Shown here one piece after another: positions 1,631 to 4,826 of a DNA stretch of 4,841 bases. Location: IMG/VR virus record IMGVR_UViG_2802429251_000006, one strand, 5' to 3'. Below the pieces are notes generated by a model. It saw only the letters and a program-made list of their open reading frames with translations. It was not told the origin of the DNA and searched no databases. The stretch's first letter is position 1. Each line of letters begins with the position of its first letter. The translations under genes and the position numbers were made by a program. The DNA is from a virus (taxonomy: Duplodnaviria; Heunggongvirae; Uroviricota; Caudoviricetes).

Positions 1631-1975
1631 ATGACTCAAAAATATGAACTGATTGTGAAAGGGATCCGCAATTTTGAGAATAAAGTTACGGTAACTTTAG
1701 CGTTACGGGACAAAGAACGCTTTGACGGTGAAATTTTTGACCTGGACATCTCGCTGGACCGTGTTGAAGGTGCCGCGCTGGAGTTTTATGAGGCAGCAGC
1801 CAGAAGGAGCATCAGACAGGTCTTCCTGGATGTTGCTGCCGGGTTATGTGAAGGGGATGAGCTGTCGCCGGAAAAGCGCCCCATAATTTTAGAGGCGCAG
1901 AATGTGTGGATAACCTACAAAGGAAAGCTACCGGGAAGAATTACTGGTTCTCTGAAGACTCCGCCGAAATGGTAA
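1631..1975 (+). CDS. ydfR: DUF1327-family protein (YdfR-like), conserved between holin and endolysin in Qin-type cassettes
   Basis: Translation MTQKYELIVKGIRNFENKVTVTLALRDKERFDGEIFDLDISLDRVEGAALEFYEAAARRS... resembles, as recalled, YdfR of the E. coli K-12 Qin prophage, which also lies between essQ and rrrQ. GGGGAG SD 7-8 nt upstream; starts 4 nt after the holin stop. Family assignment is from memory. Confidence 0.75.
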   Translation: MTQKYELIVKGIRNFENKVTVTLALRDKERFDGEIFDLDISLDRVEGAALEFYEAAARRSIRQVFLDVAAGLCEGDELSPEKRPIILEAQNVWITYKGKLPGRITGSLKTPPKW

Positions 1976-2213
1976 TTTCACCAGCATATTTTTCTTCCAG
2001 TAATACCGCCAGCCACTTGAAAGAATTTTGTTGTTGCTGGGACCATTTGGGGTTGAGTGATTCAAGCTGGAGCGATGCCAGTGTTGGTTGCATTTGTTCC
2101 TTGGGAATTGAGAATGCCAGATATGAAAATGCGACAGTAAGGGCATTTACATCATCCCGAAGCTTGGAAATGCAGTCGAGCAACTCCTGTAGAGAAATGG
2201 TGCTATTGTCCAT
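1941..2213 (-). CDS. Hypothetical small protein (90 aa) encoded antisense in the gap between the DUF1327 gene and the endolysin
   Basis: Minus-strand ORF with ATG at 2213 preceded by GAGAGG and a 7-nt spacer (an ideal SD). Translation MDNSTISLQELLDCISKLRDDVNALTVAFSYLAFSIPKEQMQPTLASLQLE... has a protein-like composition, whereas the same-region + strand ORF (1906-2238) is Cys/Ser-rich and looks like antisense noise. Its 3' end overlaps the last 35 nt of the DUF1327 gene. No homolog recognised. Confidence 0.3.
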   Translation of the reverse strand: MDNSTISLQELLDCISKLRDDVNALTVAFSYLAFSIPKEQMQPTLASLQLESLNPKWSQQQQNSFKWLAVLLEEKYAGEITISAESSENQ

Positions 2214-2318
2214 AAACAATCCTCTCTATTGTATTTAACTATTCCTTGCCTGATTCAACAGGCCGGGACAGATAAACATATCCAGGGTTCAGAAACCGAT
2301 AAATCCTGATAAATATCC

Positions 2319-2861
2319 ATGAACGTAAAAATCAGATACGGCCTGTCGGCTGCCGTTCTGGCACTGATTGCCGTCGGTGCGCCTGCGCCTGATATTCTCG
2401 ACCAGTTTCTGAATGAAAAAGAAGGTAACCACACAACGGCATACCGCGATGGTTCCGGCATCTGGACCATCTGTCGGGGTGCCACGGTGGTGGATGGAAA
2501 ACCCGTTTTTCCCGGTATGAAACTGTCGAAGGAAAAATGCGACCAGGTTAACGCCATTGAACGGGATAAGGCGCTGGCATGGGTGGAGCGCAATATTAAA
2601 GTGCCACTGACCGAACCACAGAAAGCGGGTATAGCGTCATTTTGTCCCTATAACATTGGCCCCGGTAAGTGTTTCCCGTCGACGTTTTATAAGCGGCTGA
2701 ATGCCGATGATCGTAAGGGGGCATGCGAGGCGATTCGCTGGTGGATAAAAGATGGTGGGCGTGATTGCCGCCTGACAAAAGGGCAGAAGAATGGCTGTTA
2801 TGGGCAGGTCGAGCGGCGCGATCAGGAAAGCGCACTGGCGTGCTGGGGGCTGGAGCAATGA
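2319..2861 (+). CDS. R: SAR endolysin (phage 21 R / RrrQ-type lysozyme, T4-lysozyme-like glycoside hydrolase)
   Basis: 180-aa translation begins MNVKIRYGLSAAVLALIAVGAPAPDIL, a weakly hydrophobic Gly/Ala-rich signal-anchor-release domain, then the catalytic triad E35-x8-D44-x5-T50 (EGNHTTAYRDGSGIWT). Overall it resembles the Qin/phage 21 lysozymes as recalled. The stop overlaps the Rz start (ATGA at 2858-2861). Confidence 0.92.
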   Translation: MNVKIRYGLSAAVLALIAVGAPAPDILDQFLNEKEGNHTTAYRDGSGIWTICRGATVVDGKPVFPGMKLSKEKCDQVNAIERDKALAWVERNIKVPLTEPQKAGIASFCPYNIGPGKCFPSTFYKRLNADDRKGACEAIRWWIKDGGRDCRLTKGQKNGCYGQVERRDQESALACWGLEQ

Positions 2862-3394
2862 AAATTAATCCGGATCTTATAGGCGTTGTCGTTATTGCTG
2901 GCCTTTCGGTCGCTCTCGTCAAGAGTTGCTCTCACGCCAGTAATCTTCAGAGCGATAACGACGTTCTGCGAAGTGACAACTCTATGCTGGGGCAGGTAAT
3001 CGCCACCCAGGCATTCAACTTCAATCGATTCAATCAGGTTGCAGAACATGCCAACAGTCTTAACTCCCTGATCGACACCAGCACCGAAAAAACCGTAATC
3101 GAATACCGGGAGATTCTCCGCCGTGAAAAAACCTGTGATCTGCCTGTTCCTGCTGATATCGCTGGTGGGTTGCTCGAATACACGTACCGTTTACGTGCCA
3201 GCGCCATGCACACCGATACCGGCAGACCTAATGAAGCCTATGATCGTACCGCTACCACCAGCTCAATGACCTACTGCCAAGCTGTCTTGTGGATTAAGCC
3301 GCTACTGGCGTTGATAGAAAAAGGAAATAATAATTTTTCGAGTATTCGTGAAATTGATGAGTTGCGTTACAGACCATCTGAGCATGGCCAGTAA
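2858..3394 (+). CDS. Rz: i-spanin Rz (178 aa, type II inner-membrane protein)
   Basis: ATG at 2858 overlaps the endolysin stop. N-terminal TMD LIGVVVIAGLSVALV, then a periplasmic domain of the expected size. A classic Rz1 lipoprotein is embedded in its +1 frame. The track ORF from 2765 is an upstream in-frame extension across the endolysin 3' end. Confidence 0.8.
   Translation: MKINPDLIGVVVIAGLSVALVKSCSHASNLQSDNDVLRSDNSMLGQVIATQAFNFNRFNQVAEHANSLNSLIDTSTEKTVIEYREILRREKTCDLPVPADIAGGLLEYTYRLRASAMHTDTGRPNEAYDRTATTSSMTYCQAVLWIKPLLALIEKGNNNFSSIREIDELRYRPSEHGQ
3123..3269 (+). CDS. Rz1: o-spanin Rz1 (48 aa proline-rich outer-membrane lipoprotein, fully embedded in the +1 frame of Rz; GTG start)
   Basis: Hand translation of the +1 frame: (M/V)KKPVICLFLLISLVGCSNTRTVYVPAPCTPIPADLMKPMIVPLPPAQ*. 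Signal peptide with lipobox LVGC; mature region has 8 Pro in 32 residues and a second Cys. GGGAG at 3108-3112 lies 10 nt upstream of the GTG. The frame opens at 3099 with no in-frame ATG before the hydrophobic core, so GTG 3123 is the likely start. Too short to appear in the supplied ORF track. Confidence 0.75.
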   Translation: MKKPVICLFLLISLVGCSNTRTVYVPAPCTPIPADLMKPMIVPLPPAQ

Positions 3395-3469
3395 GGTTGC
3401 AGGAAATTTAAAATCTGGCGATGAAATTTAATATTAGAAATTCATTGCCTAGTGAGATTAATAATGGGC

Positions 3470-3511
3470 ATCCCTTTGTGACGATAAGCTTTAACACATT
3501 CACAAAGGGAT
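3470..3511. repeat. Perfect 12-bp inverted repeat (ATCCCTTTGTGA / TCACAAAGGGAT) with 18-nt spacer between convergent genes; candidate bidirectional terminator or protein-binding site
   Basis: Arms at 3470-3481 and 3500-3511 are exact reverse complements. The spacer contains the palindrome AAGCTT. Flanking T-tracts are weak, so intrinsic-terminator function is uncertain. Confidence 0.35.
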
Positions 3512-3562
3512 ATTTAATATAGGGTGGTTAATTCCCACTTGCTGTGGTGTTTAGGGGGTAAT

Positions 3563-4255
3563 TCAAATCTTATCTAACTCATTATAGGCTTCGATAATAA
3601 AAATTCTGATTTTAATAAGGCATGATTCAATGAAAGGAATTACTTCATGGTCATTCCCATGGAATCTTATTTTTTTCTCTTCGGTAATGACTATGTTTAA
3701 AGGTACACCATTACCACTTCTTTGTAATTTCCCATTTTCGAAAGTAAAGTCTTCTAATTTTTTGCCATTGATGTGGTTGTTTTTAAAGAGAATTTTTGCT
3801 GAGCTTCCTGCTGTGATTAAACCAAAACCATCTACGCTCACACTTAGGTCTTTAACAGAACTCTCTTCTCTTAAGGGGATTGGTTGTCTGTGCTTTACTT
3901 CATTAGTGAGATTACACATCATTTCCAACCAAGATTCGCCAGTGTGATAATCCTGTATAGAAGTAAAAATTTTATATAATGGAGAAGATGATGGTGGGTT
4001 TATTTTTAGCGTCTTTGAGAAAAATTTATCAATAAACTCTTTTTTTCCGTAAGGGAAATATATTTTGGGGCGCTCATCATTACTGCGTGGAGAAATATAT
4101 TTATCATAGGTATCATTAGCGAGATACTCTAAGGAACTTCGTAAGTTTTCCAAAATAGCTTTGACTTTTACAGGCTTGATATGCTGTGTCTGTCTCATTA
4201 TGTCAAGACTTTCTTCAACTTCTTGCAATAAGTCCAACGAGCCTTCTCTAGACAT
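3563..4255 (-). CDS. Hypothetical 230-aa cytoplasmic protein; AT-rich cargo (moron) gene convergent on the lysis cassette
   Basis: Minus-strand ORF with ATG at 4253-4255 preceded by a strong AAGGAG SD (10-nt spacer). Translation MSREGSLDLLQEVEESLDIMRQTQHIKPVKVKAILENLRSSLEYLANDTYDKY... has no signal peptide or TMD. GC content is clearly lower (roughly mid-30s percent by eye) than in the adjacent lysis genes (about 50 percent). No family recognised. Confidence 0.75.
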   Translation of the reverse strand: MSREGSLDLLQEVEESLDIMRQTQHIKPVKVKAILENLRSSLEYLANDTYDKYISPRSNDERPKIYFPYGKKEFIDKFFSKTLKINPPSSSPLYKIFTSIQDYHTGESWLEMMCNLTNEVKHRQPIPLREESSVKDLSVSVDGFGLITAGSSAKILFKNNHINGKKLEDFTFENGKLQRSGNGVPLNIVITEEKKIRFHGNDHEVIPFIESCLIKIRIFIIEAYNELDKI

Positions 4256-4350
4256 ACAGGTAATTCTCCTTTATGAATTTTCAACATGTTATAACTAATA
4301 ATATATTTATCATATAACTGTATGAATAAATTGTGAGATTAGTAATGCAA
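4256..4350 (-). promoter_or_regulatory. AT-rich upstream region likely holding the cargo gene's own promoter (hexamers not confidently assigned)
   Basis: About 95 nt of greater than 75 percent A+T immediately upstream of the minus-strand ATG, with several TATAAT-like and TTGNNN-like hexamers on the minus strand (e.g. TTGCAT, TATAAC). Position-based inference only. Confidence 0.25.
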
Positions 4351-4610
4351 GTTTCTATCCATAGTGTTCTCTAAGTACCCGCTTCCATCATGTTGTTACG
4401 GACGGTATGGCTAAAACAAAGCACCTGAAGTTAAACGTTCTGAACTTTATGCTCGTTGAGCATATGAATTATCTGTAACCCGATGCGCTGGTTGTGGTTC
4501 ACATTGATGGTCGTAATCAGCAGCGGTGGTGCCTGATGGCATGCAACTTCTTACTTATAAAACTTCGTATGGAATTGTTGCCATAACGAGCCCAGCTTAG
4601 CAGTTTTTAA

Positions 4611-4722
4611 TGGGTCCTCCCGGCAGTGTGTCCTGCCACGGGGCGGGAGCGTCGCGGAAAAAGGCTAGTTTTTGAAATTTCATTCGTCATCACCACTACT
4701 GTAATGTATTGATATTACAGTG
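4611..4722. other. Candidate lambda-like cohesive end site (cosQ-cosN-cosB)
   Basis: TGGGTCCTCCCGGCAGTGTGTCCTGCCACG-GGGCGGGAGCGT-CGCGGAAAAAGG...TTCGTCAT resembles, from memory, lambda cos (ACGGGTCCTTTCCGGTGATCCGACAGGTTACG-GGGCGGCGACCT-CGCGGGTTTTCGC...TTCGTCAT): shared GGGTCCT, ACGGGGCGG, CGCGG and TTCGTCAT blocks at the same spacing. It lies about 175 nt upstream of the next gene start, as in lambda. Not verified by alignment. Confidence 0.45.
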
Positions 4723-4826
4723 GTTTTATTTTTGTGGTGTCGATTTTGATTGTTTTTTGTTCATCACTAACACCGTTTGCCTAAAGTTGTTCGCAAGATG
4801 CATGTTTAAAACATTCTGGAGCGGGT

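Follow-up and report, generated by a model that had tools for sequence, protein, structure and literature searches.

We analysed a window of 4,841 nucleotides from a virus of the class Caudoviricetes (IMG/VR record IMGVR_UViG_2802429251_000006), in which a single open reading frame (ORF) on the minus strand lies between the spanin gene Rz and the cos-proximal region of a Qin-like lambdoid prophage, recognised as such by the genes dicB, ydfD, hokD and rem upstream. The 230-aa product of this ORF, hereafter the cargo protein, fits best the description of a HEPN-like bundle that has kept the His but lost the Arg, not that of a canonical HEPN ribonuclease (RNase), a class in which we do not place it because the arginine of the catalytic motif is never present and no sequence bridge leads to the established HEPN families. 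Judging from the predicted model, a HEPN-superfamily fold is probable. That the cargo protein acts in phage or mobile-element conflict seems to us slightly the better assumption, and the narrower reading preferred here, put forward tentatively as a whole, is that of a HEPN-like protein of abortive infection or defence that works by itself, in analogy with HepS and Tha.

The gene, its ribosome-binding site and a natural disruption are placed as follows.

3563..4255, minus strand: cargo ORF, 693 nt, 230 aa, ATG start, 26.5 kDa, isoelectric point 6.6
4266-4271, minus strand: Shine-Dalgarno sequence AAGGAG, 10 nt ahead of the ATG
3682-3691: IS1 insertion site (target duplication) in strain PK8566, where the ORF is disrupted

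The first-pass annotation, made from the letters alone, had described a complete 230-aa ORF with a Shine-Dalgarno sequence that converges on Rz, is AT-rich compared with its flanks and encodes a cytoplasmic protein, and this description held throughout. Rz runs from 2858 to 3394 on the plus strand; the guanine-plus-cytosine (GC) content is 0.338 in the cargo ORF vs 0.512 in lysozyme plus Rz and 0.435 in the cos-side segment 4612-4841. Neither a signal peptide nor a real transmembrane segment is present in the protein, and its acidic N-terminus, a grand average of hydropathicity of -0.46 and a single hydrophobic peak, which corresponds to the amphipathic last helix of the bundle, are consistent with a cytoplasmic location. 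The end coordinate given in that annotation, 4350, covers part of the region upstream of the ORF. An identical locus is annotated in Escherichia coli ACN001, where RefSeq names the product ‘hypothetical protein’ (WP_023567552.1) and confirms that the ORF lies upstream of the cos-proximal region and of the Nu1/DUF1441 gene (start 4827).

An open frame of 230 codons would arise by chance with a probability of about 3e-8, as estimated from composition with stops at around 7 % per codon. Full-length homologs with 46-97 % identity are known from five enteric genera, and the ratio of non-synonymous to synonymous substitution rates is 0.038-0.09 in the comparisons with unsaturated synonymous divergence. 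The cargo ORF is thus a real gene under strong purifying selection. Besides PK8566, strain 64EVA carries an IS1 that breaks the matched region.

The claim that the protein matches no recognised family was borne out, with zero Pfam, NCBIfam and PADLOC matches even at E<=10; its sole database match was PHROG 13652, labelled ‘unknown function’. WP_023567552 is mentioned in no paper, and no description of the family was found in the searchable literature, with prior testing in the E. coli prophage-defence screen of Brenes & Laub (2025) being possible. The label ‘orphan’, on the other hand, was overstated. A word-indexed search found 74 relatives, and an exhaustive HMMER profile search of 1.84 billion representatives yielded, counted at 50 % identity, 1,058 clusters with E<=1e-3, of which 504 reach E<=1e-10, nearly all with members 220-250 aa long. 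When one genome per species was scanned, 31 loci were recovered from Gammaproteobacteria, Neisseria, Bacteroidota, Deinococcales and Planctomycetota, including one weak partial match in the archaeon Nitrosotalea.

AlphaFold2, run with an alignment of 30 sequences, gave a confident model (mean predicted local distance difference test score 90, predicted template modelling score 0.74) with the following elements.

Residues 3-23: predicted helix 1
Residues 28-53: predicted helix 2
Residues 54-108: loop and short predicted helices (72-82, 92-99 and 102-105)
Residues 109-122: predicted helix 3
Residues 128-198 (3662..3874, minus strand): predicted beta domain of about 70 residues between helix 3 and helix 4
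Residues 205-229: predicted last helix

Residues were then counted in the alignment columns of 131 diverse family members, which gave three conserved segments.

4112..4162, minus strand: polar stripe of helix 2, i.e. K32, E36, R39, S40, D/E43, Y44 and D48
4046..4060, minus strand: loop Y66-F67-P68-Y69-G70 after helix 2, with P68 in 131/131
3890..3907, minus strand: T117-N118-E-V-K121-H122 at the end of helix 3 (codons ACT AAT GAA GTA AAG CAC), at the position of the HEPN Rx4-6H motif

Measured against the HEPN features set out by Anantharaman et al. (PMC3710099), the model shows the four-helix up-and-down bundle of two alpha-hairpins, as well as an insert between helices 2 and 3 (residues 54-108). 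H122, the family's one invariant histidine (131/131), sits where the catalytic motif is expected and closes a family motif T-N-x-x-K-H, in which K121 is kept in all but one member (130/131). A polar residue (N, D or H) after the R position is also present, with N118 in 122 of the 131 sequences. The conserved helix-2 residues E36 (115/131), D/E43 (131/131) and R39 (126/131) recall the acidic HEPN element of that helix, but with the spacing E-x2-R rather than E-x3-[KR]. Of Rx4-6H, only the His half is present, as in variants of the PaREP1/8 type. In the structural comparison, which the first-pass annotation had proposed as a check, HEPN toxins of HEPN/MNT toxin-antitoxin systems, together with LsoA, were the best structural matches of the model, and none of the PDB matches was significant. 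The only significant whole-protein structural match was an unnamed viral protein in BFVD (A0A514TZW7, 275 aa; E 7e-5, template modelling score 0.57, 11 % identity).

Conservation is distributed unevenly over the chain. Columns below 1 bit number 9/26 in helix 2, 5/14 in helix 3 and 1/71 in the beta insert, which is the most variable segment of the protein, with a median identity of 18 % vs 34 % in the helical core. Such a pattern would be expected of a conserved effector site beside a diversifying recognition module, and makes the beta insert a candidate specificity or sensor module.

The gene is also mobile. Homologs with 46-70 % identity occur in Enterobacter hormaechei, Citrobacter, Raoultella and E. 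cloacae, in every case antisense, directly behind the spanin/lysis cassette and ahead of the packaging genes. The accompanying endolysin is either a lysozyme or a GH19 enzyme, and the packaging module is either HNH plus Terminase_4 plus TerL or integrase/Mu_F/portal_3, vs Nu1/A in E. coli. Recurrence in the same slot with variable neighbours, a check that the first-pass annotation had called for, was therefore seen in several enteric genera, and the enteric-type IMG/VR prophage loci with recognisable flanking modules show the same layout, a few of them with extra cargo beside the homolog. By blastn, the window and the E. hormaechei prophage are homologous in DNA over 3570-4381 alone, i.e. the ORF and about 125 bp upstream, while the 3′ flanks are unrelated between genera. 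The ORF and its 5′ region are thus a mobile unit that moves between prophages of different lysis and packaging modules. At both the DNA and the protein level, the gene was found in none of 50,697 sequenced phage isolates. In the E. hormaechei prophage, a 485-aa late-strand ORF (6455-7912 of that locus, minus strand) stands beside the homolog, whose other flank is about 1.3 kb without called genes; this divergent ORF, which by eye contains a glycosyltransferase-like VVVIDDGS motif and has no Pfam or PADLOC match, is absent from the other loci and was rejected as a partner.

Within E. coli, the boundaries of the exchange can be drawn by comparison with sibling prophages, and the sequences that accompany the ORF are the following.

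2862..4611: segment differing from sibling E. coli prophages, with a different Rz allele and the cargo region (blastn breakpoints 2861 and 4612)
4256..4381, minus strand: 5′ region carried along with the ORF when it passes between unrelated prophages (blastn span and upstream alignment)
4309..4337, minus strand: sigma-70-like promoter candidate, with -35 CTCACA (4337-4332), a 17-nt spacer and -10 TATGAT (4314-4309)
3470-3481 and 3500-3511: perfect 12-bp inverted repeat ATCCCTTTGTGA / TCACAAAGGGAT with an 18-nt spacer, between the stops of the convergent Rz and cargo ORFs

In siblings with the same lysozyme and the same cos/Nu1 region, homology ends at 2861 and resumes at 4612, and the interval holds only a different Rz, a 50-aa ORF, iss, or PerC with YlcI/YnfO. 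The proposal of a bor-like moron slot was upheld by the sibling in which iss, the bor homolog, lies antisense in the same position, with others empty or carrying other cargo. Like a bor-type moron, the cargo gene is an extra gene among conserved late modules, missing from siblings and deviant in composition (0.338 vs 0.512), and its independent acquisition, likewise proposed beforehand, is borne out by the breakpoints, the sibling slot contents and the GC contrast. Of 5,426 complete E. coli genomes, 98 had the 1,051-bp cargo region, chromosomal every time, vs 4,618 with the adjacent lysozyme. Between Rz and Nu1, the window encodes no gene other than the cargo ORF.

Upstream of the ORF, a block at around 4330-4381 is conserved across genera, TCTCACA is kept in the E. 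coli, E. hormaechei and IMG/VR copies, and the promoter-like CTCACA-17-TATGAT falls within the 5′ block that travels with the gene. No canonical terminator was found after the stop of the cargo ORF, only the 12-bp inverted repeat with its 18-nt loop. On neither strand does a T-run follow this repeat, and other genera do not conserve it; possible roles are those of a bidirectional terminator or a binding site.

A more distant homolog (32 % identity) lies in a P2-like prophage of Rouxiella silvae, where the capsid gene is succeeded by GPO, terminase gpP, portal gpQ, the homolog and replication protein GPA. The homolog is the sole gene between gpQ and gpA, the cos-proximal interval that Rousset et al. 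(PMC9122126) describe as the anti-phage hotspot of P2, home of old and tin. It is the Rouxiella homolog, not the copy in the window, that occupies this hotspot. Among P4 satellites, six of eight randomly chosen ones whose defence loci hold only genes of unknown function conferred phage resistance (PMC13586616).

Across the family, the gene stands alone and is foreign in composition. Across phyla, the GC content of the homolog is at least 5 points under that of its flanks in 25/28 loci (median -11.5 points). An all-against-all comparison of neighbouring ORFs revealed no conserved partner gene in 28 loci, save among near-identical Neisseria loci, which agrees with the single-gene candidate of the first-pass annotation. 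Defence and mobile-element genes are scattered among the neighbours in 26 loci (PARIS AriAB, DRT reverse transcriptases, methyltransferases, Phd/YefM and integrases), an uncontrolled and at most suggestive pattern, and on a Bacillus megaplasmid the homolog lies in an uninformative setting of hypothetical genes and a recombinase.

Several candidate associations were rejected. The homolog P0072 overlaps a 515-aa AAA_21/ABC protein by 4 nt, suggesting a two-gene operon with an ATPase; the latter is an ordinary double ABC_tran plus oligo_HPY peptide-transporter ATPase with two permeases upstream, conserved as a neighbour only within the near-identical Neisseria loci. A weak match of the same distant member to a ZorA model was judged spurious, and PADLOC gave no match for the distant members P0066 and P0074. 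Longer family members show only a weak DUF6941 tail, the remaining extensions looking like over-called starts. A hidden RNA or peptide antitoxin was sought as well, with no Rfam match at E<=1, no tandem repeats and no conserved small ORF in the cassette. Two loci are of note in their own right. In oral Neisseria (8001-10264 of locus L007; also L022, L024 and L031), the homolog is inserted in a peptide ABC-transporter cluster, flanked by the genes of an AMP-binding ligase and of the double-ABC ATPase, the latter of which it overlaps by 4 nt, at 21 GC points under its flanks, and this cluster is an odd site for a foreign gene. In Tenacibaculum (L037, 9953-10613), the homolog is broken into two ORFs of 73 and 110 aa and is apparently a pseudogene.

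Taken together, we propose the following mechanism. The ORF and its 5′ region of about 125 bp would form a mobile cassette placed antisense to the late operon in the Rz-to-cos slot, an arrangement that, by analogy with bor, may permit expression in the lysogen from the gene's own promoter. The product would be a soluble HEPN-like four-helix bundle with a polar face composed of K32/E36/R39/Y44/D48 of helix 2 and N118/K121/H122 at the end of helix 3. The variable beta domain, which directly follows the invariant H122, may sense a cue from the infecting phage, and the conserved face may be a metal-independent RNase-type site in which K121 and/or R39 stand in for the canonical arginine. Cleavage of RNA would then arrest the infected cell. 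The analysis documents that the gene is real, mobile, recurrent in its slot and stand-alone, along with the predicted fold and the conservation pattern, while expression in the lysogen, a role in defence, an RNase mechanism and sensing by the insert are steps that we infer. RNase activity in particular is uncertain because the canonical arginine is missing in all members, and we hold it with about the same confidence as the defence reading as a whole, or slightly less.

A number of results weigh against a HEPN-like defence protein. Position 117, where the arginine of Rx4-6H would stand, is T in 95, V in 13, N in 13, S in 4, L in 3 and A in 2 of the family members, and the arginine is absent in 131/131. 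No detectable sequence or profile relation to an established HEPN family was found: of the 71 Pfam families that the 131 members matched at E<=0.1, the 25 ranked highest included none that was recurrent or of HEPN type, the family profile matched no PDB sequence, and hhalign against RnlA returned a probability of 0.08. Foldseek against the PDB reached a best E of 0.058, with the HEPN toxins at probability 0.6. The defence-model search that the first-pass annotation had proposed was run with PADLOC-DB 2.0 (5,027 models, covering systems described up to 2023) and matched the cargo protein to 0 families at E<=10. The neighbours of the non-enteric homologs are mostly housekeeping genes (±3 genes pooled over 26 loci), and the same slot in E. 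coli holds non-defence cargo (iss/bor, PerC+YnfO) or stands empty. Since it is variably filled, iss and PerC included, the slot is not dedicated to defence. The promoter scan found 7 sites in the region, vs 5.2 ± 2.0 in shuffles; the candidate is a consensus-level match only, and the promoter is plausible, not demonstrated, because the scan is no higher than the shuffle expectation. In addition, AT-rich genes of enteric bacteria are frequently silenced by H-NS. The earlier proposal of a defence or abortive-infection gene therefore fares unevenly: recurrence in the slot, the homolog in the P2 hotspot and the HEPN-like predicted fold favour it, while the lack of a defence-model match, the missing arginine, the non-defence cargo of the slot and the housekeeping neighbours do not.

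Part of this evidence would also suit a non-defence factor of lysogenic conversion or host modulation, i.e. a HEPN-like or generic bundle that binds a ligand or a protein and alters the physiology of the host to the advantage of the lysogen, as bor/iss or PerC do from this slot, with no anti-phage role. The characterised cargo of the slot is largely of this kind (iss/bor, PerC+YlcI/YnfO), non-enteric copies lie amid housekeeping genes, and HEPN domains without the motif, as the missing catalytic arginine would imply here, are known as non-catalytic binding domains (PMC3710099). Nevertheless, we regard such a role as unlikely: the nine near-invariant polar residues on two adjacent helices resemble an active site more than a generic binding surface, the family is patchy over at least five phyla and compositionally foreign throughout, in one case a homolog is all that the P2 old/tin hotspot carries, and the cargo protein is cytoplasmic, whereas Bor and Iss are lipoproteins.

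More improbable still is an addiction toxin of the toxin-antitoxin type that stabilises the prophage or islet and is held in check by an unrecognised cis RNA, a tiny peptide or auto-inhibition. The resemblance of the model to HEPN/MNT toxins and LsoA points that way, the gene is stand-alone, mobile and AT-rich, and its inactivation by IS1 in PK8566, and probably in 64EVA, together with the split Tenacibaculum copy, would fit a costly gene; against this, no MNT or other partner gene occurs in the 28 loci, the travelling cassette holds no conserved small ORF, the flanks hold no Rfam RNA or tandem repeat, and no relation links the 3′ flanks of different genera. A counter-defence or regulatory protein serving the phage's own lytic growth, e.g. 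a sponge or an inhibitor of a host immune signal or protein, might be suggested by the ability of HEPN-type and helical-bundle domains to bind nucleotides, by the BFVD match (E 7e-5) to a 275-aa viral protein and by the phage-borne enteric copies, but it is very improbable given the antisense position to the late operon with a 5′ region of its own, the absence from all 50,697 phage isolates and the many chromosomal copies without nearby phage genes.

If the reading as a HEPN-like defence protein is true, the cargo gene would represent a widespread single-gene immune module missed by PADLOC, Pfam and NCBIfam, the theme of solo HEPN prophage defence (HepS, Tha) would extend to an R-less, insert-bearing clade, and the lambdoid Rz-to-cos position would be a defence slot near cos, a counterpart of the P2/P4 hotspots. 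The mechanistic question would then be how an R-less HEPN site cuts RNA, if at all. It is tempting to speculate, as a rather doubtful extension, that N-x2-K-H, where helix 3 ends, and the Arg/Glu/Tyr/Asp stripe of helix 2 form a new site constellation in place of the canonical Rx4-6H site, in a large R-less HEPN-like clade of at least five phyla with a diversifying beta domain at the site mouth, and hence a new type of one-protein immune sensor-effector in cos-proximal slots of lambdoid and P2-like prophages. Should the defence reading be wrong, a large, well-folded and strongly constrained family would still merit a Pfam entry. The cargo gene is a good candidate for phage challenge, though one among many such.

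The surrounding late region of ACN001 comprises antiterminator Q, tRNAs, two lipoproteins with a TolA C-terminal domain, holin EssD, YdfR, lysozyme and a 178-aa Rz; then come the oppositely oriented cargo ORF and the genes for DUF1441 (a Nu1-like small terminase), the large terminase, the portal and the tail. Further features of the window are listed below.

185-613 and 764/785-1159, plus strand: tandem pair of genes for lipoproteins that have a TolA C-terminal domain, in a cargo slot between Q and holin
1941-2219, minus strand: 92-aa antisense ORF overlapping the ydfR 3′ end, upstream of lysozyme; hypothetical protein WP_000370545.1, found in several genomes
2862-3394: Rz allele, 84 % identical in DNA to the spanin region in a prophage of E. 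cloacae (L085, 7004-7388)
3123-3269, plus strand: 48-aa lipoprotein ORF (MKKPVICLFLLISLVGC...), out of frame within Rz
4695-4724, plus strand: hairpin of 13 pairs with TTTATTTTTG behind it, some 100 nt upstream of where Nu1/DUF1441 starts

RefSeq names the tandem lipoproteins ‘cell envelope integrity protein TolA’ and ‘TolA C-terminal domain-containing protein’, and in a further E. coli prophage that shares the lysis genes, lipocalin and YbgA genes take their place; that they act as entry-exclusion decoys against Tol-dependent phages or colicins is speculation. The E. cloacae prophage with the 84 %-identical spanin region also has a cargo homolog (46 % identical), which hints that Rz and the cargo gene may sometimes transfer together. 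The RefSeq record examined has no annotation for the 48-aa ORF, which is the expected Rz1 o-spanin, and the hairpin falls in the cos-proximal region conserved among sibling prophages.

Among known systems, the closest in position are lambda bor, which lies after Rz and before cos, and E. coli iss. They share with the cargo gene the slot between Rz and cos/Nu1, the antisense orientation, the single-gene format and probably also the possession of expression signals of their own. In contrast, Bor and Iss are outer-membrane lipoproteins of around 97 aa that confer serum resistance, and the cytoplasmic cargo protein of 230 aa is unrelated to them in sequence. The likeness to P2 old and tin is also one of position only: the Rouxiella homolog stands alone in the same hotspot and the E. 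coli copy is cos-proximal too, yet there is no homology to Old (ATPase-Toprim) or Tin.

In fold, the nearest are the minimal HEPN toxins associated with MNT (HepT; e.g. 5yep SO_3166, 7ae2, 8xdj, 1jog HI0074 and 4nqf), which have 120-150 aa, an Rx4H motif and a nearby Tyr AMPylated by the antitoxin, and are always paired with an MNT antitoxin gene. The cargo gene has no MNT gene beside it in the 28 loci, i.e. it lacks the adjacent antitoxin gene of the type VII HEPN-MNT systems, and its product differs by the absent arginine and the beta insertion of about 70 aa. PaREP1/8 of the HEPN-T clade (PMC3710099) are R-less HEPN proteins as well, with K121 and R39 the candidate substitutes in the cargo protein; they are archaeal, lie in different operons and are likened to it by description.

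In biology, the preferred comparison is with solo HEPN defences of prophages. HepS (STM14_3211; PDB 9OIJ/9OIK) is encoded by the Gifsy-1 prophage of Salmonella Typhimurium 14028 (PMC13043305); the profile of the cargo family found no match to it in the PDB, provided that 9OIJ was in the searched copy, and its R100-H105 motif is missing in the cargo family. Tha-1 and Tha-2 are tail-activated HEPN anti-phage proteins of Staphylococcus aureus prophages (PMC11087260). Tha has 301 aa, a C-terminal HEPN domain with a canonical R-N-S-I-M-H motif, an HHpred match and a cognate inhibitor, Ith, while the cargo protein carries its extra domain inside the HEPN bundle, lacks the arginine and has no inhibitor gene in view. 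Both HepS and Tha were found by the same reasoning as applied here, and both are experimentally proven solo-HEPN prophage defences (PMC13043305, PMC11087260).

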